27,396 nucleotides of DNA. Origin: Nitrososphaeria archaeon (GTDB taxonomy: Archaea; Thermoproteota; Nitrososphaeria; JACIWG01). This document shows, piece after piece, positions 1-17,350 of this stretch (positions are counted from its first letter, which is position 1; each line of letters opens with the position of its first letter). Location: NCBI GenBank assembly GCA_050011875.1, contig JBEKIG010000018.1:1-27396 (forward strand). Direction: 5' to 3'. The translations under genes were made by a program, and so were the position numbers. The notes under the pieces were generated by a model, which ran no database searches, was not told where the DNA came from, and saw only the letters and a program-made list of their open reading frames with translations.

Positions 1-249
1 ATGGAAAACAGAGGGGTGAAAAATATAATTGGGATCGCGAACGGGCCGGGGAAACTAACTAAAGCGATGAACATAACTATGGAACATTACGGAATAGACC
101 TTACAGAGGAGGGGGAGCTGTACATTATAGGGCATGAAACAGATGAAAAACCTTCTATTGCAACCTCCAAGAGGATTGGCATCAAGAAGGCCTCCGAAAA
201 GCTGTGGCGATTTTACATCAAAGACAACCCTTTCATATCAAAAACCTGA
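1..249 (+). CDS. mpg: 3-methyladenine DNA glycosylase (MPG/AAG family), C-terminal part; gene runs in from upstream of the window
   Basis: Family motifs NGPGKLTKAMNI and TSKRIGIKKA..LWRFYIKDNPFIS. Confidence 0.9.
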   Translation: MENRGVKNIIGIANGPGKLTKAMNITMEHYGIDLTEEGELYIIGHETDEKPSIATSKRIGIKKASEKLWRFYIKDNPFISKT

Positions 250-266
250 CATATCAACTATCAAAG

Positions 267-297
267 GTCAGCTACCACCCCTTAAAAGGAGTGGCTT
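267..297. mobile_element. IS200/IS605-type terminal hairpin (left end on + or right end on -)
   Basis: GTCAGCTACCACCCCTTAAAAGGAGTGGCTT. Its reverse complement matches the end motif next to tnpA at 10375-10405 at 23/31 positions with compensatory stem changes. Confidence 0.7.
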
Positions 298-474
298 GTA
301 GCTGTCATTCACTATATCATTTAATTTATAGAAAGATATTGATCGATGATAATAAAATCAAAATAATCAGCACTCGATGAACAATAAATTTTTATGGTAA
401 AATTTTTTGACGTTAAACCATATTTTTTGAACCTTTAGTGCTTTAATTAACAGAACAACAAGTCTGATACAACA

Positions 475-816
475 ATGAGTGAACATTCAAATAAAGTTGA
501 CCAGATAAAAAAAGTGTCTACTGAATGTGATGAACATTATTCCTTTTTAAAGGAAACAGGATCTTCTATAGACTCGAATTCTCTAAAGCCCAGAGTGCGT
601 AATATTACTCATTCAACAAATGTTGGCAAAAAAATTTCTAACTTCGGTATCGCTTTGGTAGCGTTACCTGATCCGATAATGATATCAGATGCGGTTGGAG
701 GGGTCCTTTTTATTTCAGGTCGATATATGCAGAAGAAGGCGCCTATTGTACTAAAAGACGTGTTCAAAGAATTTAACAAAGTCAACGGAGAGTTAAAGAA
801 AGCACGTTTTCTTTAG
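475..816 (+). CDS. Hypothetical protein with a hydrophobic hairpin segment
   Basis: 113-aa ORF; GIALVALPDPIMISDAVGGVLF followed by a basic helix. Confidence 0.65.
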   Translation: MSEHSNKVDQIKKVSTECDEHYSFLKETGSSIDSNSLKPRVRNITHSTNVGKKISNFGIALVALPDPIMISDAVGGVLFISGRYMQKKAPIVLKDVFKEFNKVNGELKKARFL

Positions 817-907
817 ATTCAGGATTTAAGCTAAGAATTTAACCCTCTTCGAAGCTTTCTCCTTTTTTTCAGACATAAGCTCGTTTACGTACAAAAGGAT
901 ATCAGAG

Positions 908-1141
908 ATGCCTGGTGGGACATCCTTTACATTCAGGGGCGTCACCTTCTATAGCATACCGTTCAATACAAGTGTTACAGCCTGTGAATTCTACTATATC
1001 AGAATCACCTCTCATAACGGTGCTTCAGAGCAAATAGGTAGGATATTGTGCTACAGGGGGCACAGATGTAGTTTTAACGAACGACGTTAATCCGAGGGCA
1101 GGAATAATAGTGAGGAACTAACTAGCAGCCTTCAAAGATAG
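908..1141 (+). pseudogene. Possible decayed gene fragment ending at the 48-bp repeat
   Basis: Short protein-like ORF 908-1090; the region ends at the dispersed repeat starting at 1142. Confidence 0.25.
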
Positions 1142-1189
1142 AAGTTTCTTTATATCCAATCGATAGATTTTGTAAAACCTGTGTCCTAA
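1142..1189 (+). repeat. 48-bp dispersed repeat, copy 1 (copy 2 at 26171-26218)
   Basis: AAGTTTCTTTATATCCAATCGATAGATTTTGTAAAACCTGTGTCCTAA; 44/48 identical to copy 2. Confidence 0.9.
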
Positions 1190-1543
1190 GATGTATAGAA
1201 AGATGTTGATCAAGTGAACCTATGCATGATATTAAATTTCAGTACAAAGAATAAATGTTAAAGGATTACGAACTCATTTTTAAAAAGTTGTGCAACCTTC
1301 AAAGGCACAAAAAACTAGCCTGATGGCTCTTCGTAGTAAAAGACAACTTAAATTTAGTTTTTACTGTTCTTTTTTCATGCACGAGCTTGCGAGCGCACGC
1401 ACTATCATTATCCAATCTGTTTTTTATCAATGCGTGTGACAGAGAGAGATACAGACAGATATGGTATGAGAGATGGTACACACACGAGAGAGAACATACG
1501 TGCGTGGATGCGTTTTCGTGTGTCAGAGAAAAAGATTAAATTT

Positions 1544-1600
1544 TAAACCAAAACCAAAACCACTTCCAATTCACTTCCCCTTCACTTCCCTTTCCTTCCC
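1544..1600. repeat. Low-complexity tract: AAAACC-type repeats, then CACTTCC at 11-bp period
   Basis: CACTTCC at 1561, 1572 and 1583, with a degenerate copy near 1593. Confidence 0.6.
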
Positions 1601-1658
1601 TATACTGGAGAAACGACAAACCCAGACATACAGACAGACACTCTTATCAATCAAACTT

Positions 1659-3152
1659 TTAAACGCGCGCGTTTCTCCATCGCGATAAAAGAAAGACTAT
1701 GATTGCTAAACACACCACCACCACTACTGCGGTCGCTAGAATGGTTAATGTCTCGCCGTTGTAGCCATAAAATTCGACGATGGGCTGAGAGGTCACACTA
1801 TGCCCAGTGGCGTCTGTTACGGCTACGGCTAGCTCATGTTGACCCATTGAGGATGGACTGTAGAAATAGCTTGTAGTGCGACTGTTGGTTGTCATCTGAT
1901 ACACCGTTATGCCATTATCCATCCATATGTAGGAGAAGGGGGCAAACCCTCCTGATATTGTCAAGTTAAGAAGGGCACTAGAATTTGCTAATAATGGATT
2001 TGTTGAATTGAATTCTCCGATGAACGACAATATCGATAAAGGCAAATAGACTTGTACAGCTGTATAGCTTTCATAGAAATTGGGTTGGCCGAGGACTACA
2101 GTATAGGTCCCGTTCGTCATGATTGTCTCAAGGTTGTAGGCCCCTTCAGCTGTGTTGCTTCCGAACCCATACAGGGCATAGGGAGTTATGATGGTTCTAT
2201 TGGACATCGAATAGTGCATGCTCAGAGTGGAATTCATTTGGGTGAAAGTAGTGACTTCTCCGTTAAATTCCCCTCCGAAGACGAGTTCTGCGTCATAATC
2301 ACAATAGTTTGTCGGCGTCAGACCGTATCCGCTTATAATTATTGACGCGTTAGTAACTCCCGGGGCCATTATGGTTGCTGTGTCGTAATTTATCGGATCG
2401 TGTATTCTTGAATCCTGACCGTTCGTTAAGATCTGATAGGCAAAGGTGACATTAACCGAGTTGGTCGATGCTGAGATACTGATGGGTAAGTTGAATCTAA
2501 GTGGGAAGCTGTATGGCTTCGACTGCGTACTGAATCCATAGCAGTATTCTCCTGTGATGTTGTAATAACTTACGCTTCCTTGGCCGGAGACGTTAGCGCT
2601 GGTCATGTTGGCTTTTGGTAAAGAGAAATTCCAGATATTGTCCGTGAAAAACAATGAACTCGCATTAGTTACGAAGTCTGCCATATCTTGTAGCCAGTAG
2701 TCTTTTTGACCGGAAGTCGTGTTTATTTGCAACACGATATTCAATTGGAGACTTACGCAATACGGGTTTACAAGAGTTTGAGTTCCATTATATGCACCTA
2801 TGGAAAATATCTCGGCGTGGCCGACCACGTTATTTGTTAGAATCGCGTAAGGAACTACATAACCAGATTCATTTTCTTCGCCATAATCGGCAATTCCCGT
2901 AGGGACTGGAGCAGAGTGATACATATGATGGATGTCAACAGGGTCTCCTTTGGCATGCAGAGAACTCACATACTGTCGATCTATAAGGTAGCTTAGGGCG
3001 TGGTTTTGTTGGACATATGCAGGCAGCTGTGCAATATACGCATGAACCGAGGCAGCATGCTCACTCATGAAAAGCATGAAACACAAGAGGATGATGGAGA
3101 GCAGTTGAAGTCGGGAATTATTCATACTTCCCCTGGTCAAATTGATAAGCAT
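1659..3152 (-). CDS. Thermopsin-family (peptidase A5) protease with signal peptide, Ig/PKD-like domain and C-terminal membrane anchor
   Basis: Motifs PTGIADYG, SLQLNIVL, YWLQD, DNIWNFS, DAELVFGG and GSNTAE; hydrophobic N-terminus; TM helix plus RWRNARV tail. Alternative start ATG at 3125. Confidence 0.9.
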   Translation of the reverse strand: MLINLTRGSMNNSRLQLLSIILLCFMLFMSEHAASVHAYIAQLPAYVQQNHALSYLIDRQYVSSLHAKGDPVDIHHMYHSAPVPTGIADYGEENESGYVVPYAILTNNVVGHAEIFSIGAYNGTQTLVNPYCVSLQLNIVLQINTTSGQKDYWLQDMADFVTNASSLFFTDNIWNFSLPKANMTSANVSGQGSVSYYNITGEYCYGFSTQSKPYSFPLRFNLPISISASTNSVNVTFAYQILTNGQDSRIHDPINYDTATIMAPGVTNASIIISGYGLTPTNYCDYDAELVFGGEFNGEVTTFTQMNSTLSMHYSMSNRTIITPYALYGFGSNTAEGAYNLETIMTNGTYTVVLGQPNFYESYTAVQVYLPLSILSFIGEFNSTNPLLANSSALLNLTISGGFAPFSYIWMDNGITVYQMTTNSRTTSYFYSPSSMGQHELAVAVTDATGHSVTSQPIVEFYGYNGETLTILATAVVVVVCLAIIVFLLSRWRNARV

Positions 3153-3567
3153 CAGTTATATTACTCTTTAGTCTTAGAATGCGCGCAAACGCGTGTAGCC
3201 AAGCTAGAACAAGCACAGAGGAAATAGGAACAACAAGAACCAAACACGTAACCGATAATGCGCTGGGGTGTAAAATTTAATCTTTCTCGCCTCGCCCTCA
3301 CTATTTTACGATCGATCTAGATGACACTTATTGCATTGTGCTATCAGAAGCTTATCTATTCTAAGTGGAGTACGAACTAGGTTGCTGATAGCCTTGCGGT
3401 GCGTTATCCTTAGAAGTTTACTGTTGTTCATGATTTGGACCTGTTGATGTTGATTTAGGTTATAGGAATAGAAAATTTGTTTACGGAGCCTTATCTTTAC
3501 CCTTATTTACCGTCTGTTCCCAGTAAAACAGCTTAAGATTCCTATCTTCTTAAATGTCATTTAACCG

Positions 3568-3682
3568 TCAACAACAGTCAACGATCATCAACGATCATCA
3601 ACGATCATCAACGATCATCAACGATCATCAACGTCCGTCAACGTCCGTCAACAGTCATCAACATTTATCAACAGCCATCAAC
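3568..3682. repeat. Tandem array of 12 TCAAC boxes at exact 10-bp spacing
   Basis: TCAAC every 10 bp from 3568 to 3678. Linkers: AACAG, GATCA x5, GTCCG x2, AGTCA, ATTTA, AGCCA. One more in-phase TCAAC at 3708. Confidence 0.95.
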
Positions 3683-4099
3683 AGCAGCCGTTAGGGACCA
3701 TCAGCAGTCAACAGGAATCTAACAGTTGACTATTGCACCATCGAACAATCGTACTAGTGGACTAACTAAATTTGGGAGTGGAGAAGGCTTGTACAAGGAT
3801 GCGTTGTCTAAAAAACTGTCTGCATCATGAGATATAAAGCAAGAATCATGGTCTGCTGCTCTGGAAGAAATCTCAAAAATACTTGGACCCAAGTGGAAAG
3901 AAGGGATATATTGAACATAAAAAAAAGGTTGGGAGCTAGTGCTAAGATTAAGAGCGGAAAGAACAAAGCCAATGGCTTCCACTGGTAGATTCATAGTACC
4001 ACCCGAATTAAAAATGAAATAGGAAATGTGGAATATTGACGTAGTGGATCGTATCTGAGAAATCGGCATTCTGCTCTGCTACTCTGATAATATTGATGT

Positions 4100-5029
4100 T
4101 TAGCCTTTTACATGGCTTTCGAAGTTTGTTACTAATTCGCATAACAAGTTCTTCTTTTGCTTATCCCGCTCATTAGCTAACATCTCAATCAAGTGTTTGA
4201 AAAGCCAAGTTCTGTCGTCAATGTACTTCAGAGGTATGTATGGCACCTGTACTCCTTGGAAGACGACCCCCCTTAGTTTATCGAATTGGTCTAACATGAA
4301 CTCGTCACCTTCTTTACCTGAGATTGTGTTAAGCAGGCTAAGCAGCTTACTATATGTCTCTATTGTAAATCTTACGTCATCGCTTATAGGATCTTTTGCG
4401 GCGGCTTCCACCCATTTTGACGCAAGAAGCCTAAACTTTTCTACATACTTTTCCTCCTTTAACCTCTTCAGGATTTCATCCTTGGCAGCCAGTTTCTTTA
4501 ATATGTTGAATAGCTGTTCATGTTCTCGCCTGAGCTGTTCTCCTATACCTTCCAAGATCTCATCTACTAATAGGTAGCATGCTTCTGGGTTTGAGGTTGC
4601 AAGCTTGTCAAGTCTGTAAAGCATAACTGTATAGAGTTCATAGTTTTCAGTGGGCAAGCTACTTCCCTTTCCATTACATTCTTGGAGTATTTTTAGCCAC
4701 TCTGCAACCTCCTCTTGAACGGGGATCATCTCCTTTATTGCCGGTTGCTCTTCTGTCATCATTAGTGCGTCAACTATCTTACGCCCCCTTTCAGATAAAC
4801 TACAATATTTACGTGGACCGCCGATTTTTTGTGATTCCTCTCTTACTTCGATAAGGTCAGATCCTTTAAGTTCTTTTACGGCCTCAGAAATAGCTGGCAG
4901 CTTTACACCAAGTGCTCTGGCCAGTTCGCTCATATGCATCTCCTTTGTCTTGGTTAATTGCTCTATTAACGAACGATGCCTTCCCATAATCGCCATTTCC
5001 TTCCACACATCATCATCTTTATTAGACAT
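4100..5029 (-). CDS. Winged-helix DNA-binding protein (ArsR/MarR-like N-terminus) with long alpha-helical C-terminal region
   Basis: MHMSELARALGVKLPAISEAVKELKGSDLIEV...GGPRKYCSLSERGRKIV. Confidence 0.85.
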   Translation of the reverse strand: MSNKDDDVWKEMAIMGRHRSLIEQLTKTKEMHMSELARALGVKLPAISEAVKELKGSDLIEVREESQKIGGPRKYCSLSERGRKIVDALMMTEEQPAIKEMIPVQEEVAEWLKILQECNGKGSSLPTENYELYTVMLYRLDKLATSNPEACYLLVDEILEGIGEQLRREHEQLFNILKKLAAKDEILKRLKEEKYVEKFRLLASKWVEAAAKDPISDDVRFTIETYSKLLSLLNTISGKEGDEFMLDQFDKLRGVVFQGVQVPYIPLKYIDDRTWLFKHLIEMLANERDKQKKNLLCELVTNFESHVKG

Positions 5030-5035
5030 TTAGGA

Positions 5036-5052
5036 AACTAACCAACTTAGTT
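5036..5052. promoter_or_regulatory. Candidate operator inverted repeat in the divergent promoter region
   Basis: AACTAA-CCAAC-TTAGTT directly upstream of the wHTH start codon. Confidence 0.3.
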
Positions 5053-5230
5053 ACTTAACAAAATAGAATATATACTTTACTATCTTACTATAAGCTGTTA
5101 ACTATTGGTAGTAAAAAGTCCAACAAACAGAATTTCATATCGGTTGTCAGAGCTTTCGAGGCTTTCTTATCGAACTTCTGCGACAACTTCTCCAACAACA
5201 GGCTTTTTTGTTATGAGTCGTTGACTTGAA

Positions 5231-6826
5231 ATGAGAAATCTTGATGAAGTAATTAGGAAGCTGAGGGAACTTGCGAGGGAGAAGCCGCTGGGACCAGAAG
5301 ACCAGGAAACAGCGGTAGAATTAATGCGGGATCTTAGAAAGGGCGGGTTTACAAGCGAAGAAATAAGTGAAGTAACAGGTCGTGCCTGGAGCTCCTCCTC
5401 AGTTAGAGGGTTGGTGGCAAACGTTAAGGTTTCAGATTCCGGAATGAAAGCGAGGGCAATTGACCTGATCATAAAGGCCGTTGAAAAGGACATCAGTTTA
5501 GACCAGGTCGAAAACGCCGTCTCGATTAAGTCTAGGCTGGATTCGAAGGGGACTAGCCTTGAAGAAGTCGCAGATTTTTTGAAGGTAGCCGAAGCTGCGA
5601 AAGCTAGCGTAGGAGAGCTGGTAAAGACAATTAACTCCCTTATCCTCTCTAAGATCACGGTCGATCAGCTAAAGCAGATACTCGAATATAAGAAAAGATA
5701 TGAATTGATGGGGCTCACTTTAGACCATTTAAAGAACATGTACACATTATTAGAAAAATATGGAAGATATGAGTTTGTCATTCAAGCTATCAATACGTAC
5801 AATTCCCTTGTTGAACTTCAGCAGAACTTGAAAGAATGTAATTCAAAGAAGGTCAAGTTGGAAACTGAAATAAGCAGGTTAACTAAAGAAATTTCAAGTC
5901 TAAACGAAAAGAGAAAAGAAGTTGAGGAACCTCTGAAAAAATACGATAACTTGAAAGGGAAAGGCCTTGACGAAGCAGCCCTCCAAGAACTCAGCAAGGC
6001 ACGTGAAAAATTTGGAAGCATCGGAGGCGTCCTTAGGGCTGTCAATAGCTTCGGAAGCCTTGTAGAAATCAGGTCAAGAATTTCTGAATCAGAACGAAAT
6101 GAAAAGGATTTGGAAAATAGAGCAGATAAGCTTAGGACGGAGAACGCTCAGACGTTCAAGGCTATAGAAATGTGTAGGAAGCTGGAGTTGACATACAGAT
6201 TCAATTTAGATACCATTGAAAATTTGATCGCAATCGCAGAAGAATATGGCAGCCCACAGGAAGTGATAGAGGCCATCAGAAGCTACGGTAGTCTCAAGGC
6301 AGTTATAGACAAGATTAATGTGCTGAAAGATCTTATAGGAAAATATGAGACAAATATTACACAGCTCAAAGGAGACATTTACAGCTGGGAGAAAAAGCGT
6401 GAAACAAATATTGCGCAGCTCAAAGCAGACACTTACAGCTGGGAGAAGAAGCGCGACGCAGTAATAAATGAACAAAGGGAATACTCCAACGGGCTCCAAG
6501 CTCAAAAGACTAGAGCAGAACGGTTTGGAGGCGAACTTGAAGAGGCTAAGATAATATTGGCTCTTAGGAAATATCCGTCTGAACTCAAAATCGAAAATTT
6601 AGAGTACCTAGTTCAGACTATCAGGAGCTTAGCGAGCAGAGCAAAGGATCTTGGATTAAACAGAAAATTTGTACTTAAAGACGCAATGGACGCCACATTT
6701 TATTCAAAACATCTATACCTAACCACCTCTAGTGAAGTAGAATTACTCGAAGTGCTCGACTGGGCGTGTAGAGCTATAACCCTCTGTGTTGTCAGGGCGT
6801 CGTTAGGTAAAGCGGGTGCAAGTTAG
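5231..6826 (+). CDS. Uncharacterised N-terminal HTH plus coiled-coil protein with three internal helical repeats
   Basis: HTH-like LRKGGFTSEEISEVTGRAWSSSSVRGLV; repeats EKYG..VIQAINTYNSL, EKFG..VLRAVNSFGSL and EEYG..VIEAIRSYGSL, each followed by heptads. Confidence 0.85.
   Translation: MRNLDEVIRKLRELAREKPLGPEDQETAVELMRDLRKGGFTSEEISEVTGRAWSSSSVRGLVANVKVSDSGMKARAIDLIIKAVEKDISLDQVENAVSIKSRLDSKGTSLEEVADFLKVAEAAKASVGELVKTINSLILSKITVDQLKQILEYKKRYELMGLTLDHLKNMYTLLEKYGRYEFVIQAINTYNSLVELQQNLKECNSKKVKLETEISRLTKEISSLNEKRKEVEEPLKKYDNLKGKGLDEAALQELSKAREKFGSIGGVLRAVNSFGSLVEIRSRISESERNEKDLENRADKLRTENAQTFKAIEMCRKLELTYRFNLDTIENLIAIAEEYGSPQEVIEAIRSYGSLKAVIDKINVLKDLIGKYETNITQLKGDIYSWEKKRETNIAQLKADTYSWEKKRDAVINEQREYSNGLQAQKTRAERFGGELEEAKIILALRKYPSELKIENLEYLVQTIRSLASRAKDLGLNRKFVLKDAMDATFYSKHLYLTTSSEVELLEVLDWACRAITLCVVRASLGKAGAS
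6347..6454 (+). repeat. In-frame 54-bp tandem duplication
   Basis: ETNITQLKGDIYSWEKKR / ETNIAQLKADTYSWEKKR. Confidence 0.9.
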
Positions 6827-6827
6827 G

Positions 6828-7739
6828 ATGAGCCTAGATAAGATCAAACAAGAAATCGGCAAACTTGAGGCAATAGCAGACTATGATAAAGTAAAGAAGG
6901 AAAGGAATGAGATGTTAAAGAAGACAGAGGAGCTTGAAAGTACAAAATCAAATTTAGAGAAAGGGCTGCAAGATAACGTTAACAAGAATGCTGACCTACA
7001 GGCCAAGTTAGGCGAAGGAGGGGTAAGAATTAAAGCTCTGGAGGATGAAGTTCAAAACTTTAAGGCAAGAAACGTGGAACTTGAATCAAGGATTAGTAAC
7101 CTAGAACAGCTTAAAGCCACAACCGAAGGGAAGACATTGAGAGAGGCTGAAGAAGCCTTCATAAAGGCGAAGAATGGAGAAATTCAGAAGGTAGCTGAAG
7201 AACGCTTCAACTTCATGAAGGCTGGATGGGAACGGGACAAGAAACCAGCAGAAGTATTGAATGCCGCTTGCAATCTACTAGATCGCAGTTTGAAGGGTGG
7301 TCTTCGGATAAAGGAACTCGCAGAAAAAGGTGTGCCTGAGGCAGTTATCAAAATAATCTCAAACGAAGTCAGTTCAAGGATAAACCAGGAGTTCATAAGA
7401 AGGGTCGAAGAAGAATCCAATAAAAAGCTCAACCAACTGAAGAATGTTGAATGGCCTAACTGGTTCAGGACACATGTGGAGCCAAAAAGTAGGGAACTGG
7501 AAAGCAAGATTGTTGCAAATTCTCTGAAACGCTTAGAAGGCCCCTGGATCATCACTTGCAACAAGTGCGGGTCACAACAAGAAGATATGGCGTTCGACGA
7601 GGACGGAGTATCACGATTGTTAAGAGACAAGCTGGTTTATATTCGATGTTCAAACCCGAACTGCAGAGATTTCATAGGAGGGCACAGGATCAAAGTGGAG
7701 CTTCGGAAACTCATCTACCATTACTTGATACAGGGATAA
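6828..7739 (+). CDS. Uncharacterised coiled-coil protein with C-terminal zinc-binding domain
   Basis: ATG at 6828, 1 bp after the upstream stop; E/K/L heptads, then CNKC...CSNPNC. Confidence 0.85.
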   Translation: MSLDKIKQEIGKLEAIADYDKVKKERNEMLKKTEELESTKSNLEKGLQDNVNKNADLQAKLGEGGVRIKALEDEVQNFKARNVELESRISNLEQLKATTEGKTLREAEEAFIKAKNGEIQKVAEERFNFMKAGWERDKKPAEVLNAACNLLDRSLKGGLRIKELAEKGVPEAVIKIISNEVSSRINQEFIRRVEEESNKKLNQLKNVEWPNWFRTHVEPKSRELESKIVANSLKRLEGPWIITCNKCGSQQEDMAFDEDGVSRLLRDKLVYIRCSNPNCRDFIGGHRIKVELRKLIYHYLIQG

Positions 7740-7798
7740 TTTGGAAAAAGTTAAGCTGGCGATGTAGAAAGCGAGAACTTCTCAATAAAGCTCAATAA

Positions 7799-7924
7799 TT
7801 TAATATTGTATACTCTAAAGGGCCAGAAGAGCCATCACAAAAGGCACTTGAAATTATAATGAAATGTCAAACTAGTGTAATAGTTAAAGAGGATAAACTG
7901 TTAGGAATCATTACAAAAACATAG
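7799..7924 (+). pseudogene. CBS-domain remnant
   Basis: Startless frame GPEEPSQKALEIIMK...VIVKEDKLLGIITKT resembles a CBS motif. Confidence 0.5.
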
Positions 7925-8043
7925 CTTTTGCCTTAATTGGTGGTGTTAGTGCGTTACTATGTCATACTTTAGGACAAGCTTTTTTAAATTAAGAAGTTAG
8001 GATAGAGTATACTTGGTGGGACGCTCTTATTTTATCTCATTAG

Positions 8044-9366
8044 TCACTCCTTCACACTTGCAATTTGATCTTGAGGAGCTAACTTTCGTTGGCCTACGCT
8101 CTGCTTTTTTGAGGGCAGAAATAGCGAAGCAACTAGACCCATGAGTGTTACAATTGTGCCGATTGCGAAGACCGGGATAAATGAGGGGTTGGAAGCGATG
8201 AAATAGCCAGGCACGACCGACACAATTGCTCCGACTAGATTACCTCCACTATTCATTATCCCAGCTGCTGTACCTGCAACCTTGGGTGTGAACAGTTCGG
8301 TTGTCAGTGGCCAGGCGTTGACCAAGCCTGAGTTGAACATCCAAAAAAGCACAAGTAGGGTGATTATGTATTGAAGCGGGATAGTTCCAAACAGGGCGAT
8401 CAAAGAAGTGACTAAAGCCATGATAAGAAACGAACCCAAGAGAGAATATACAACAACCTTCCTGTGACCTATACGATCACCCACAAAGCCGGCCAGAGGC
8501 TGTCCCAGAAGTGGGGGTACGGTCGCAACCATTGTGAAGAGAAATGCGGCCGTAACATTGTCCATGTTGTACACCTTCACGAAGTAGAGTGTCAGCCATG
8601 CGCTGATGCTGAAACCACCTGTGGCCCCTGCGTATACTAGCGTGAGGATATACGGGGAGGACGAATGCTTCAGGACGTATCCTGTCGATTCCTCATTGCA
8701 TTCTACCTTTCTCGCCTCAGATAACTGTTCTGTAATTGGTGGAAGCCCAATATCCTCAGGCGTGTTCCGTGTGAATCTGAACACCATTGGTACGGCGAGG
8801 ATCACAGGCAAGCCTACTAGGAGGAAGTCGGATTGAACTGATGACAAACCCAGCAGACGTGTTTGTCCACTCACCAGCACAGGCATGATCAAACTTGCCA
8901 ATATCATCGCTAACTGTCCACTATTGAACAGTATGGCAGTCTGCATTCCACGTCTTGAGGGAGAGAACCATCGGGCAAGCATAGAATTCGCTGGGACAAG
9001 TATAGCAGCTGAACCCGCACCTATCAGAGCCCTTATGATAATACTCAACTCTATGCTGGGTAGAAAGATGCCGAAGAGCACAGACCCCACGCCCATGAGA
9101 AGTGTCCCGAAGAGGACCGTTATCCTCGCACCTAGCCACCGCTCGCTCACGTAGCCAAATGGAACCTGCATAACCGCATACGACCAAATCAGAGCTGAAT
9201 TTAACCATCCTACGGTCGCCGGATCCCAATGGTAGGTAGAAATCAGAGAAGGTATGACGGTGGATATGTCTGAACGCTGGAACCAGTAGAGGAAATAGAC
9301 TATGAGCACGGTGCTCAGCACGACCCACGAATACGGATAAGACCGCCTTTGCCCTTCCATCTCCAC
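8044..9366 (-). CDS. Major facilitator superfamily transporter
   Basis: About 12 TM segments; GYVSERWLGAR, LARWFSPSRRG, GFVGDRIGHRK. Confidence 0.95.
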   Translation of the reverse strand: MEMEGQRRSYPYSWVVLSTVLIVYFLYWFQRSDISTVIPSLISTYHWDPATVGWLNSALIWSYAVMQVPFGYVSERWLGARITVLFGTLLMGVGSVLFGIFLPSIELSIIIRALIGAGSAAILVPANSMLARWFSPSRRGMQTAILFNSGQLAMILASLIMPVLVSGQTRLLGLSSVQSDFLLVGLPVILAVPMVFRFTRNTPEDIGLPPITEQLSEARKVECNEESTGYVLKHSSSPYILTLVYAGATGGFSISAWLTLYFVKVYNMDNVTAAFLFTMVATVPPLLGQPLAGFVGDRIGHRKVVVYSLLGSFLIMALVTSLIALFGTIPLQYIITLLVLFWMFNSGLVNAWPLTTELFTPKVAGTAAGIMNSGGNLVGAIVSVVPGYFIASNPSFIPVFAIGTIVTLMGLVASLFLPSKKQSVGQRKLAPQDQIASVKE

Positions 9367-9777
9367 TACACTGGAACATTCACATTTAATTGTTACAGAT
9401 TACTTCCTAATGGATTAAAAGCGCCTTCTCAACGCTTTGTTCAAGATAGAAAACGTATTGACAATAAGACTTCCCAGCGAAAAGATACTTGGATGCTTCT
9501 ATGTCACTCTTAGAAATCTTCAAGAAAATAGATGCTGTTCTAGCATTTTCCGTCTTCTACTCCTTAGATGTTGGAGAACTTCCTATTTCGGTCCGCATAG
9601 TAGCATAAGGAATTGAAGAAGAAAGAGATTATTCGATGACAATGTCGATTGACAAAATATTTTACGGGGAATCTCCCTCTGGCGAGCCTGGCCTGTGGTA
9701 TGAACATCATCTCGATAGAAAATGACATACTCCCCACATTAAAATGTGGGGTATCTACGGCATCGCAGAGCATAGGA

Positions 9778-9807
9778 ATACAGAAAGATACGGAAACATA
9801 CGGAAGG
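9778..9807. repeat. Three 10-bp direct repeats upstream of the 9846 gene
   Basis: ATACAGAAAG ATACGGAAAC ATACGGAAGG. Confidence 0.55.
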
Positions 9808-9845
9808 TACATATATTAGAAGGTTCATAATAATAGTGTGATTGT

Positions 9846-10076
9846 ATGGAGAAAAAAAGCATAATTTTGCCAGATTGGAGGCGAAGACTTTTGGAACAAC
9901 ATCTACTTACGGCACTCATAGCACTTGAGTTAGTCCTGAGTGTGGTATTCCTTTTAGTTTCATATCTTACAGGAAACATATACTTTAAGGGAGTCGGAAT
10001 TGGATTAATAATCGCTTGGGTAACAAGTGCAATAGCCTATTTATTCAAAAGGAAAATGGATGAGAAAAAGGGATAA
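9846..10076 (+). CDS. Small two-TM membrane protein
   Basis: 76 aa, two hydrophobic helices, basic tail. Confidence 0.65.
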   Translation: MEKKSIILPDWRRRLLEQHLLTALIALELVLSVVFLLVSYLTGNIYFKGVGIGLIIAWVTSAIAYLFKRKMDEKKG

Positions 10077-10077
10077 G

Positions 10078-10209
10078 ATGGCAGACATACCATTCATAGC
10101 GACATTGTTGGAAGAAGGAAGGATAACCATACCAAGAGCAGTAGTGAAAGCAAAGAAAGGAAAGAAGGGAAAGACATACCACTTCGTAATAAAAGAGGAG
10201 GTTAAATGA
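10078..10209 (+). CDS. Small AbrB/MazE/SpoVT-like DNA-binding protein (43 aa, not in the ORF track)
   Basis: MADIPFIATLLEEGRITIPRAVVKAKKGKKGKTYHFVIKEEVK; GRITIP motif; ATGA overlap with tnpA; GAGGAGG RBS-like sequence before tnpA. Confidence 0.7.
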   Translation: MADIPFIATLLEEGRITIPRAVVKAKKGKKGKTYHFVIKEEVK

Positions 10210-10400
10210 AGAATGAATACTCGCACTTCAAACCACCGCAAGACTTAGGAAAGAAGTTAGACACAATGCGGTCAGGAAGTCATACGAAATACAATAACAA
10301 TTATCACGTTGTATGGATTCCAAAGTATCGCAGAGCAGTATTGGGAAACCCAAAGATAAAGGAAATTCTGAAAGAAGCCACTCTACTTGTAGGGTGGTAG
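10206..10400 (+). pseudogene. tnpA: IS200/IS605 Y1 transposase TnpA, N-terminal fragment
   Basis: SHTKYNNNYHVVWIPKYRRAVL; ends before the HUH motif and catalytic Tyr. Confidence 0.85.
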
Positions 10401-10405
10401 TTCAC
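10375..10405 (+). mobile_element. IS200/IS605 right-end hairpin
   Basis: AAGCCACTCTACTTGTAGGGTGGTAGTTCAC; stem-loop followed by TAGTTCAC, fused to truncated tnpA. Confidence 0.75.
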
Positions 10406-10598
10406 GAAGTCTGCCACTTCTTACAAGGGATTGGTCCAATATTGGATCGACCTGACTCAAAGAGGCTTTTCATGATCTTAGGAAGTTGTTTTATATATTC
10501 CTCCCACATCCTATCTACTGTAGCCTCATATTTCAGTTGATCAAACCTCCACGAAACCGAAGGAAGTTACGGCGTGACCTGTGGCATAGTGACCCGAT

Positions 10599-11351
10599 TC
10601 ATTTCCACTTGGTGAGTATCTCTTCCCTCTTGAAAGTGGCTGTGCTTAGGTAGAAGAGAAACAAGTCGGCCACCAGAAAAATGCCAGACATGATGAGCAA
10701 GTTGATCGTGTTCAATGGAATCACGTTGATTTCGGTCATCACGTAGATGATGATGAAGGGAAAAAACATCACTCCGGTGAATTGTTGCACAGCCCGGATG
10801 TCATTTGCATGTGATGATAAGATAACGGTCAATTCGATTGAGAGTATGCTGGCGAGTGGTGCAAGTACGAGAAGGATCACTCCAAAGCTCCAATTGGGAT
10901 AGTAAAGATACCCTAGCACGGAACGAGTTAAGGCGTCCATCAGTATCATGTAGATTACGGAGCCTGCATAGATGGAGGCCATTGGAGGTACGAAAGAAGC
11001 GACGCATTTTCCCAGCAGGATGTCACTATCTGCCATGGGCGTTGCAAGTAGCGGTTCGAGGCTCTTCTGGATCTTCTCTCCAACTATGCTGTACGAAGCG
11101 ATCCCACTTGGAAGACTCGCTGCTCCAATTACAAACCAAAAGGAAAACGCGTCCAGAAACGGGGTGAAGGAGCCGCCAGCGCTGGCGGAACTCGGGTAGA
11201 TGTGCCAGATTGCAGCAACAATTCCAGGAAACCCGAGGGCGATTCCAAGTGGGAATAATATCGTGGCATAGATGACTCCCTTCCTACTCTTGAAAGTCTC
11301 GAAGTCCTTTGACGCGACCGACCATGCGTTCTGCAAGTCCAATTCTATCAC
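10599..11351 (-). CDS. ABC-2 type transporter permease
   Basis: SIVGEKIQKSLEPLLATP..ILLGK motif; 6 TM; overlaps the ATPase stop codon. Confidence 0.93.
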   Translation of the reverse strand: MIELDLQNAWSVASKDFETFKSRKGVIYATILFPLGIALGFPGIVAAIWHIYPSSASAGGSFTPFLDAFSFWFVIGAASLPSGIASYSIVGEKIQKSLEPLLATPMADSDILLGKCVASFVPPMASIYAGSVIYMILMDALTRSVLGYLYYPNWSFGVILLVLAPLASILSIELTVILSSHANDIRAVQQFTGVMFFPFIIIYVMTEINVIPLNTINLLIMSGIFLVADLFLFYLSTATFKREEILTKWK

Positions 11352-12265
11352 TGGCTCCTGACCAACTTCAAGTACACATCCTCTAGAGTCGAGCTTGCCT
11401 CTGTAACGAACTGGATGCGACCCCCGGCAGCACCGATTGCACTCACAACGTCAGGATTCTCCTTTTCAGGATTACCCACTCCGATGATGAGTTTGTTGTC
11501 CTCAACTACGACATCACTCGTTCCGACTTTCTTCACTGCAGATATGATAGCCTCACTGACACTCTCGAGCTGGACCACGATCTTCCTTCCTCTTGCCGAC
11601 CGCTCAAGCTCGGCAGGAGTGCCCATCGCCATCAGCTTGGTGTTCAGGATGCCAATCCTGTCGCAGATCCTCTGAGCTTCGTCAAGGTTGTGCGTGTTCA
11701 GGAAGACAGTCTTCTTCTCCTTCTTCAGCTCGAGTATGAAGTCCCTGACCGTCTTCGATGCTTCGGGGTCGAGATTGACCGTCGGCTCATCCAAGAAAAG
11801 AACTTGAGGGTCGTGAATCAATGCGCGAGCTATAGCAAGCTTTTGCTTCATACCCTTAGAGAACGTTCCTGCTGCTAAATCCCTCATGTCCCATAATCCC
11901 AACATCTTGAGAAAATATTCTATCCTTTCTTTTCTCTTTGACTCATCGACCTTATAGTATCTGCCGTAAAAGTCCAGGTTCTTGTACGCACTTAGTTCCT
12001 CGTAGAGCCCAACATTATCTGGAACCAGCCCAATGATTCCCCTGATCTTTTGCTGATCTGCACTGTTTCCAATTTCATAATCGCCTATTTTAGCGGCACC
12101 ACTCGTCTTCGATATCAGACATGCCAGCATTCGTATAGTGGTGGTTTTCCCGGCGCCATTAGGACCGAGAAACCCAAAAACTTCGCCTTCATCCACATGG
12201 AGTGTGAGGCTGTCAACCGCGGTCAGGTCGCCGAACTTCTTAGTGAGGCTCTCCGTCTCAATCAA
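11348..12265 (-). CDS. ABC transporter ATP-binding protein (CcmA/multidrug type)
   Basis: Walker A GPNGAGKTT, signature FSKGMKQK, Walker B LFLDEPT, H-loop. Confidence 0.96.
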   Translation of the reverse strand: MIETESLTKKFGDLTAVDSLTLHVDEGEVFGFLGPNGAGKTTTIRMLACLISKTSGAAKIGDYEIGNSADQQKIRGIIGLVPDNVGLYEELSAYKNLDFYGRYYKVDESKRKERIEYFLKMLGLWDMRDLAAGTFSKGMKQKLAIARALIHDPQVLFLDEPTVNLDPEASKTVRDFILELKKEKKTVFLNTHNLDEAQRICDRIGILNTKLMAMGTPAELERSARGRKIVVQLESVSEAIISAVKKVGTSDVVVEDNKLIIGVGNPEKENPDVVSAIGAAGGRIQFVTEASSTLEDVYLKLVRSQ

Positions 12266-12440
12266 ACTACGTCAGTGCTAATAAATAAGGTTCACCATTT
12301 AAATATTATACAAAGTCAAAAATCATTTCCCCAGATAAGGGACTTAAACCCTTTTAGGTATAGGTTCCAAAGATAACAATACTTTCCGATTCTTGACGGT
12401 CGTTAAACACATTAAGGATCGATATACAGAGAAATACGTA

Positions 12441-17225: not shown

Positions 17226-17350
17226 TTCCTATCCACATGAAGCAATTCCTAAAGGTTTCCTGTACACACCCCTATTTACCCTCTTTTCCCAGCTAAATTC
17301 CTGAACATTCCTATTTTCCTAAATTCCCTATTTAGGAGTCCTGATAACCT
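17226..17350. repeat. Degenerate array of (TT)CCT boxes with roughly 10-bp phasing
   Basis: TTCCT at 17226, 17246, 17257, 17298, 17308 and 17316, with CCCT/TTCCC/GTCCT variants between and after. Confidence 0.45.

Follow-up and report, generated by a model that had tools for sequence, protein, structure and literature searches.

A coiled-coil gene pair beside a phased repeat array

The window analysed here is the complete 27,396-bp contig JBEKIG010000018.1 (C18) of a Nitrososphaeria archaeon, whose assembly (G000; GCA_050011875.1) comprises 2.64 Mb in 119 contigs and is 97% complete. In its left part, the window carries a phased array of TCAAC repeats, a gene encoding a 309-amino acid (aa) winged helix-turn-helix (wHTH) protein and, divergently from the latter, two adjacent genes that encode a 531-aa coiled-coil protein and a 303-aa partner ending in a candidate zinc ribbon (Table 1). 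The original prediction, made from the sequence alone, had joined the array and all three proteins into one undescribed system, with co-location as their only link. Our analysis retains the 531/303 genes as a real, conserved and unnamed two-gene module, on the evidence of paralogous pairs, metagenome pairs and gene fusions, and sets apart the wHTH gene, an apparent orphan with non-homologous positional counterparts. Moreover, co-location is superseded as the only link, since the array motif follows the N-terminal class of the 531-aa protein.

The array had been described as twelve 10-bp units, and TCAAC indeed recurs 12 times at exact 10-bp steps (starts 3568, 3578 ... 3678), with a 13th copy at 3708, beyond which stands a single inverted GTTGA at 3725. 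The pattern TCAAC N5 TCAAC N5 TCAAC has 10 matches in the window, compared to none in 100 shuffles, and across the genome TCAAC averages only 1.34 per kb per strand. Tandem Repeats Finder (TRF) assigned the array a period of 10, with 8.5-10 copies and 86-90% matches. Assemblies from three sequencing runs break within the array (3607-3662 unbridged), so they are uninformative on copy-number variation. The sequence TCAACGA occurs three times in the window outside the array, and the inverted unit just before the ATG of the 531-aa gene is only suggestive as an array-related site. The same intergenic region contains a weak 12-bp repeat of 2.2 copies at 5173-5199.

The 531/303 genes form a conserved two-gene module

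The genome of the window has four paralogous family loci, the window included. The pair at C17:549-3054 shares 70% and 72% identity with the 531-aa and 303-aa proteins, respectively, and the pair at C5:42462-44823 shares 43% and 33%, in addition to a fused form of 576 aa at C3:143581. A second genome of the same genus (G001) contains three family loci. Among 41 related genomes, the 531-type gene was found only in G000 and G001, with four matches each.

Metagenome scanning with the partner protein yielded 21 loci, two of which belong to the same organism, and 15 of the other 19 were evaluable. The 531-type gene lies directly upstream of the partner in 12 of these 15, one is a fusion and two are devoid of a 531-type gene, one of the two being a stand-alone C-terminal domain. 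The expected conservation of gene order is thus borne out for the pair, whereas a nearby array is frequent and not universal. In genomes of other species the linkage is less pronounced: the 12 loci include a clear pair at two (L035 and L040), a fusion of 754 aa at one (L038) and partial or weak partner matches at L036 and L039. The remaining seven are without a partner; six of them are distant 531-type matches (E-values of 1.7e-17 to 4.4e-11), and the seventh (L037) is a truncated gene of 206 aa.

At least six natural fusions further connect the two proteins. Among 173 proteins, five clear fusions (P0113, P0124, P0126, P0146 and P0156) join positions ~1-430 of the 531-type protein to positions ~150-318 of the partner; P0017 and, weakly, P0020 are additional cases alongside L038, and three further double matches are coiled-coil cross-matches. 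All fusions lack both the C-terminal domain of the 531-type protein and the N-terminal coil of the partner, and we therefore infer that these two parts may constitute a docking interface. A complex prediction for residues 352-531 of the 531-aa protein with the 303-aa protein, using alignments for both, gave a score of 0.00 and is used neither for nor against this proposal.

In a word-indexed protein search, the 531-aa query retrieved only three proteins and the 303-aa query 14. A profile of the 531-type protein, built from seven sequences and scored against 1.84 billion protein representatives, gave 569 matches at E<=0.001, a number that falls to 385 at E<=1e-10 and to 211 protein clusters at E<=1e-30. 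The only named members in the sample are P0100, a 'hypothetical protein', and P0170, labelled likewise, from a metagenome-assembled genome assigned to Candidatus Bathyarchaeia. The family is present in 12 of 401 species-representative genomes of the class (G000 counted, as well as the unpublished G364, which enters this count alone) and, at E<=1e-15, in one of 401 genomes of an even sample of the phylum, namely its own. The module is confined to a few archaeal lineages, in some of which it is a single fused protein. Neither coiled-coil protein fits a family in Pfam, NCBIfam, PADLOC or the PDB sequences, and a limited literature search turned up no description of the family, in agreement with the claim that the pair is undescribed.

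Two loci of G001 resemble decaying copies: at C6:40037-41705 (L011) the 531-type gene is split into open reading frames (ORFs) of 210 and 324 aa, and at C5:11383-12570 (L009) it is truncated to 395 aa with no downstream partner.

Domain architecture of the two proteins

The 531-aa protein consists of a small helical N-terminal domain, about six short helical-hairpin modules, long coiled coils and a C-terminal globular domain (~aa 450-531). Its AlphaFold model has three short N-terminal helices (residues 22-37, 42-48 and 55-61) with a predicted local distance difference test (pLDDT) score of ~76-83, the first two separated by a 6-residue loop, and long helices at residues 180-243, 294-322 and 352-447. 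The ESM Atlas held no usable match for this protein, Foldseek searches of the PDB with the 531-aa and 303-aa models gave nothing at E<=0.001, and PDB profile searches returned only coiled-coil noise and designed repeat proteins. Pfam likewise gave the 531-aa protein only weak matches of coiled-coil type. The gene also contains a 54-nt tandem duplication (6346-6453, 88% matches), which adds an 18-residue repeat (TNI.QLK.D.YSWEKKR) in two copies and is absent from the C17 paralog.

The start codon of the partner gene agrees with that of its homologs, which begin at the same MSLxKI, and both the 1-bp spacing of the genes and the CxxC...CxNPxC terminus are as originally described. The putative zinc motif reads C244-x2-C247 ... 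C274-x-N-P-N-C279, and residues C244, C247, C274, C279 and H286 are invariant across 14 sequences. The model places β-strands at residues 240-243, 250-254, 269-273 and 287-291 around this candidate zinc ribbon. The C-terminus has no Pfam match, and fold searches were dominated by coiled-coil matches. A wide VIA-align search with the 303-aa model found only generic coiled coils (Z<=7.6) over residues 1-168, barely covering the zinc-ribbon part, and feature matches in the ESM Atlas all stayed below 0.85, with template modelling (TM) scores of at most 0.30. A stand-alone paralog of the zinc-ribbon domain adjoins the ATP-binding cassette (ABC)-transporter operon of the window and matches positions 211-318 of the partner profile (hmmsearch, E=4.8e-34). 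A similar stand-alone form is present at metagenome locus L078.

As originally noted, none of the three proteins has a Walker A motif or belongs to a nuclease, recombinase or NTPase family in Pfam, NCBIfam or PADLOC. By the Pfam scan and the Walker A check, no NTPase accompanies the pair: the only ATPase among 18 window ORFs scanned is an ABC-transporter subunit (11348-12265), and no family of the ParA, ParM or TubZ type was found (Pfam).

The array motif covaries with the N-terminal class

The N-termini of the 531-type proteins define two main classes, hereafter designated by locus with the prefixes G0 and G1 for G000 and G001. Class I (GFTSxEISExxGxAW..S..R) comprises the window gene, G0_C5 and G1_C5, and class II (TNxxI....GGWxExT.K.YTRG) comprises G0_C17, G1_C10 and G1_C6 as well as several metagenome loci. 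The class I genes are preceded by homologous arrays, with the motifs CATCAAC at 10 bp in the window, CATCATCAGC / CATCAAC at 10 bp at G0_C5, where the array ends 70 bp before the start codon, and ATCAAC at 10 bp at G1_C5. The class II arrays are composed of ATTATC at 9-13 bp (G0_C17), CATTATCC at 12 bp (G1_C10) and ATTATCC (G1_C6). At G0_C3, eight to nine copies of TGCACC are followed by four of AAATTGCCTTT, and the G209 loci have arrays of GGGATAT and TTGAAA. At all compared loci, the arrays are oriented toward the gene.

Within 150 bp, the forward motif CATCA[AG]C is present in eight, eight and three copies at the three class I loci and in none or one at 14 other loci; at least three copies are found in only four of 1409 ORF upstream regions. 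Similarly, at least three copies of forward TATCC occur at six of eight class II-like loci, including metagenome loci L069, L070 and L075, compared to 0/3 class I loci, 0/6 loci with other N-termini and 49 of 1409 upstream regions. Clusters of ATTATC (at least four in 120 bp) are restricted to the C17 locus in the whole 2.64-Mb genome. At L069 and L070, the partner proteins are ~40% identical and arrays of the class II type lie right at the start codon; L069 has about seven ATTATCC-like units at positions -110 to -35, and L070 has CCATCC/CTATCC units together with an inverted GGGATAG/GGGATGG set.

Comparison of the window gene with its paralogs points in the same direction. Its product is only 32% identical to the C17 paralog over aa 1-97, compared to 85% over aa 98-350 and 77% over aa 351-531, and nucleotide homology to C17 begins only at position 5522. 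The N-terminus is closest to that of G1_C5 (58%), followed by G0_C5 (52%), and the array, the core described below and the N-terminal codons are the sole parts common to the class I upstream regions. By these alignments, the window gene is a mosaic: its N-terminus and its array are both of class I, whereas its body is that of the class II paralog at C17. The array therefore accompanies the N-terminal domain rather than the remainder of the protein.

Arrays are frequent but not obligatory companions of the family genes. TRF arrays (non-coding, period 9-13, at least 3.5 copies) were found within 1.7 kb upstream of three of four family loci in G000, compared to 30 of 1521 ORFs of at least 200 aa, the C17 arrays falling under the threshold of this count. 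At least five exact copies of a 6-mer are present at 6/7 loci of the genus, compared to 11/297 random ORFs; the compared loci are relatives, and both enrichments overstate their independence.

A proposed scaffold with a cognate array, and its relation to known systems

We tentatively favour the reading that the pair is a KfrA/KfrC-like, NTPase-free coiled-coil scaffold or autoregulator of two proteins with a cognate array, which on sequence grounds is plausible if somewhat short of probable. The N-terminal ~97 residues of the 531-aa protein would recognise a motif of 6-7 bp that recurs with every helical turn (9-12 bp) along an array of direct repeats oriented toward the gene. One face of the array would then be coated by numerous 531-aa proteins, joined by their coiled coils, whose C-terminal domains would dock the zinc-ribbon partner at its coiled-coil N-terminus. 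At loci with the array adjoining the promoter (G0_C5, G0_C3, L069 and L070), binding would autoregulate the operon as well. The array of the window is 1.5 kb from the gene, behind a locus-specific wHTH gene outside the conserved module.

KfrA offers the closest parallel in architecture. As described in PMC7783346, KfrA of the IncU/IncP plasmids RA3, RK2 and R751 has an N-terminal helix-turn-helix (HTH) and an α-helical coiled-coil tail, its operator consists of five 9-bp direct repeats at its own promoter, and it binds the α-helical KfrC, scaffolds a nucleoprotein complex and aids plasmid maintenance. Both systems possess a small N-terminal domain, DNA-binding in KfrA and putatively so here, followed by a long coiled-coil tail with internal sequence iterations, and neither has an NTPase of its own. 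Both also have a separate α-helical partner, which in the case of KfrC is bound to the tail and here is known from the genes. KfrA has its direct repeats at its own promoter; the arrays here abut the start codon at the four loci named above, lie 1.5 kb away in the window and are absent from several loci.

The differences are considerable. No KfrA-named Pfam family matched the whole protein at E<=0.01 or residues 1-100 of five paralogs at E<=5, and we found no sequence kinship. The module resides in an archaeal chromosomal setting with no ParA/ParB genes nearby, its partner ends in a candidate zinc ribbon, its repeats number up to 13 and lie 0.8-1.5 kb from the gene at some loci, and several paralogs with differing putative specificities coexist in one genome. 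TubY, as described in PMC7762940, likewise combines an N-terminal HTH with a C-terminal coiled coil and is a component of the TubR-tubC centromere complex. The resemblance to KfrA and TubY is one of architecture only; membership of either family fails because there is neither homology nor a partition NTPase.

In ParR-parC and TubR-tubC systems, short tandem repeats arranged in arrays are bound cooperatively by a small DNA-binding protein, and the centromere sequences differ between systems. Our locus is similar in that tandem repeats (13 TCAAC in a 10-bp phase) adjoin an adaptor-type gene, and a centromere role is putative. However, partition systems of types I-III and the AspA-ParB-ParA system of pNOB8 have an adjacent actin-, tubulin- or Walker-type NTPase, none of which was found here; no homology to their adaptors was detected, and our proteins are far longer and mostly coiled coil. 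The large serine recombinases also combine a coiled coil with a small zinc β-ribbon, and clusters of Zn_ribbon_recom/DUF4368 are among the structural neighbours in the Atlas. Nevertheless, the TM-scores of 0.18-0.21 are far under a fold match, no resolvase or recombinase domain is present, and the resemblance is a lead only, not a sign of kinship.

Evidence against the proposed scaffold and alternative explanations

Several observations weigh against the scaffold reading. The AlphaFold model of the 531-aa protein is poor overall (pLDDT of 62.7), and matches of its N-terminus to HTH families are all sub-threshold (DUF3489, 16.6 bits; MerR_1, 13.4 bits), as are those of a paralog N-terminus (GerE, 15.6 bits; Sigma70_r4_2, 14.2 bits). 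Of the originally described HTH/coiled-coil protein, the coiled coil is thus upheld, whereas the HTH is not established. At 4/7 loci of the genus, the array lies 0.8-1.5 kb from the start of the 531-type gene and beyond another gene (1.5 kb in the window), and therefore it is no simple operator there. Outside the genus, at least five exact 6-mer copies occur at just 1/12 loci of other species and 3/7 metagenome loci, and at L065 and L073 coding sequence extends as far as the start codon. The TATCC motif is short, and the array at L069 was recognised by eye. In addition, block inheritance could mimic the covariation, because the loci are related and the array shares the 5' side of the gene with the N-terminal codons.

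Further points against the scaffold come from the repeats of the genus, on which the main rival draws. Here the array would be part of a genus-specific, dispersed non-coding repeat system in flexible, repeat-rich regions, and the coiled-coil genes would merely share these regions. The window array abuts a ~100-nt pyrimidine-rich core, of which the genome contains 19 copies (nhmmer) and which is also present in G001; an alignment of 12 copies revealed no consensus secondary structure, and the core has no Rfam match. These 19 cores and 42 non-coding arrays (period 9-13) are in many cases far from family genes, and numerous cores have 10-12-bp arrays with widely differing motifs at their flanks. 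At C6:5295-7160 (L050), four same-orientation cores within 1.8 kb are separated by six 10-11-bp arrays of differing, often TATA-like motifs (TTATACCCTCG, CCCCTATAAAA, ACCCTTTATAG ...), with no family gene. TCAAC arrays homologous to that of the window are found at C16:17070 and C22:4762 in a different element near unrelated genes, and cores also lie near IS200/IS605 and restriction-modification genes. The rarity of arrays at family loci outside the genus fits this explanation as well. Four isolated CATCA[AG]C arrays (C3:17374, C16:17078, C16:27763 and C22:4799) and an isolated TGCACC array (C16:28710) could be extra binding sites of the family or, equally, evidence of an independent repeat system.

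Against a repeat system of this kind stand motifs that follow the N-terminal class at 3/3 class I and 6/8 class II-like loci, including metagenome loci with partners of only ~40% identity, ATTATC clusters found genome-wide solely at C17, and arrays that read toward the gene at all compared loci. Moreover, no core was found at the G001 family loci. We regard the independent repeat system as rather unlikely. The link of the core in the window to the gene module is uncertain.

Other members of this repeat population were recorded along the way. A second core copy lies in the window at 17234-17337 (nhmmer, E=1.9e-20), flanked by a CarboxypepD_reg-domain gene and an ORF of 137 aa; no family gene is in its vicinity. 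The element holding the two homologous TCAAC arrays is ~430 bp long and common to C16:16950-17450 and C22:4520-4990 (L055 and L056), where the TCAAC array is followed by a 12-bp AAACTTAAC array; further AAACTTAAC arrays are located at C30:4091 and C7:114268. The intergenic region C16:27750-28771 contains a CATCA[AG]C-type array of ~12 units and an inverted TGCACC array of six units, flanking AT-rich DNA; the two motifs belong to different paralogs of the family, and thermosome and hypA-like genes adjoin. At C4:504-4013 (L052), a TnpB gene and an IS200 TnpA+TnpB pair are each followed by a same-orientation core 150-390 nt downstream. A general explanation of the core as the right end of IS605/TnpB elements was rejected, as only 2/5 TnpB copies have a downstream core, both in one region, and the copies at C81, C24 and C3 have none nearby. 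Two similar small proteins without a Pfam match (C6:6369-6956 and C3:25082-25768) start ~60-100 bp from a core and contain MTLEQ(A/V)KAEVLKLVD...Y(R)(E/D)I, possibly representing another DNA-binding family tied to the repeats.

A second alternative is that the pair serves as a defence or sensor module, or as cargo of a mobile island, with the arrays acting as decoys or regulatory sites or being recombination scars, and with a role in conflict rather than in chromosome organisation. Its patchy spread, its multiple copies with diversified specificity and the absence of the left 8 kb of the window from the syntenic site of a sister genome are in line with this explanation, as are neighbours elsewhere: an SNF2-type helicase at C17, a DpnI-like enzyme at G1_C10, and restriction-modification and IS605 genes near cores. 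On the other hand, the best PADLOC matches of the pair (PbeC, E=0.0032; JetC, E>=0.028) all fall on coiled-coil stretches, no effector domain was found in the proteins, and no defence neighbour recurs across loci. None of 315 candidate stretches in viral contigs held relatives of the 531/303 proteins, and the window is devoid of integrase and tRNA genes. A conflict role is accordingly quite unlikely in our view. The helicase in question is a 996-aa protein of SNF2/ResIII type, encoded with a sacsin-domain ORF just past the C17 arrays (C17:4518-7998, L058) and not conserved elsewhere.

The third alternative concerns the 309-aa wHTH protein, which would bind the array as a local regulator of the divergent coiled-coil operon, the 531-aa protein not being sequence-specific. 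It is the sole one of the three proteins with a DNA-binding match at family level, and its wHTH assignment is upheld: aa 17-67 match HVO_A0114 of Pfam with 27.7 bits against a cut-off of 27.6. MarR_2 (24.4 bits) and TrmB (23.7 bits) remain below their cut-offs, the ArsR/SmtB family of NCBIfam matches with E=1.7e-7, likewise under its cut-off, and in PADLOC only the HTH parts of Csa3/CasR were matched. At 4/7 loci of the genus, a gene placed like this one stands between the array and the pair, with the array 58-400 bp past its 3' end, and three of the four encode a weak or clear wHTH. However, the genes at the other three loci have no detectable homology to the 309-aa protein or among themselves: they encode 255 aa with a weak wHTH at C17, 190 aa with a FUR-like wHTH and a zinc ribbon at G1_C10, and 161 aa with no family match at G1_C6. 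The word-indexed protein search found no relatives of the 309-aa protein, the single match being the protein itself. By these comparisons, the gene is an orphan specific to this locus and outside the conserved module. The array motif does not track it, since loci of one class have either different divergent genes or none: G0_C5 and G1_C5 have the window's array type without such a gene, and three class II loci have ATTATC(C) arrays in common with non-homologous divergent genes. As the array also lies at the 3' end of the wHTH gene and not at its promoter, regulation by this protein is improbable.

Genomic setting

Features of the module and its surroundings are listed in Table 1. The flanking genes are commonplace by Pfam, including a thermopsin (1659-3152), a major facilitator superfamily (MFS) transporter (8044-9366) and an ABC transporter, and the GC content of the segment (0.40-0.41) is similar to that of the neighbouring sequence. 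Rfam gave no match on the window. Peat metagenome runs of at least two studies contain near-identical DNA, with no RNA run listed among them, and one of these studies may be the source.

In the sister genome, the MFS and ABC-transporter genes are in the same order as at 8100-12280 of the window, and nothing beside them matches window 1-8000; the module is therefore located in the flexible genome. The thermopsin was not found there with the query used. A short open frame at ~7797-7922, which ends ...VIVKEDKLLGIITKT, resembles the C-terminal remnant of a CBS-domain gene and coincides with the break of synteny. The original assignment to an archaeal mobile element is not borne out: no integrase, recombinase or viral hallmark gene was found among the window ORFs (Pfam), no tRNA gene lies in the window, and the viral contigs gave no relatives, though the segment is absent from the syntenic site of the sister genome.

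Table 1. Coordinates of the features at the locus (window positions)
Feature	Position	Strand	Remarks
Two partial inverted array units (GTTGATGTTGAT on + strand)	3443..3454	-	Left of core; CATCAAC at 3443-3449
5'-diverged copy of the dispersed ~100-nt pyrimidine-rich core	3471..3569	+	nhmmer E=4.4e-21
Phased direct-repeat array	3568..3712	+	Unit (C)ATCAAC-N3/4, class I motif; oriented toward 531-aa gene
Spacer without supported gene	3713..4099		116-aa ORF 3719-4069 (-) without family match
wHTH protein, 309 aa	4100..5029	-	N-terminal winged helix aa 17-67, helical C-terminal part; between array and pair
Divergent intergenic region	5030..5230		Inverted array unit TCAACGA at 5218-5224, 7 nt before ATG
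531-aa gene	5231..6826	+	TAG stop at 6824-6826
N-terminal ~97 codons of 531-aa gene	5231..5521	+	Putative class I DNA-specificity domain; exchanged part of mosaic
303-aa partner gene	6828..7739	+	ATG 6828, one base past 531-aa stop; ~100-aa coiled coil, helical middle, C-terminal candidate zinc ribbon
Stand-alone paralog of partner zinc-ribbon domain, 121 aa	12594..12959	+	tblastn 38% identity to aa 197-296

Implications

A bolder extension of the scaffold reading, which we hold to be unlikely, is that soil and peat archaea possess an NTPase-free 'address-tag' system. Paralogous complexes would each be paired with their own phased array through an exchangeable N-terminus, and the coiled coils and zinc ribbon would bridge, tether or position the marked DNA, be it extrachromosomal copies or islands of the chromosome. 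In that case, the arrays would serve as centromere-like sites or loop anchors rather than as mere operators.

If the covariation reflects binding, the family would provide naturally exchangeable DNA-specificity domains, each of them matched by an array with one repeat per turn and mounted on a motor-free coiled-coil scaffold. The analysis singles out a protein family of more than 200 clusters, so far 'hypothetical', and the phased arrays and cores of the genus may represent a common, overlooked class of archaeal non-coding DNA. Altogether, the module is a concrete candidate for DNA organisation or segregation in non-model archaea, where these processes are largely unknown.

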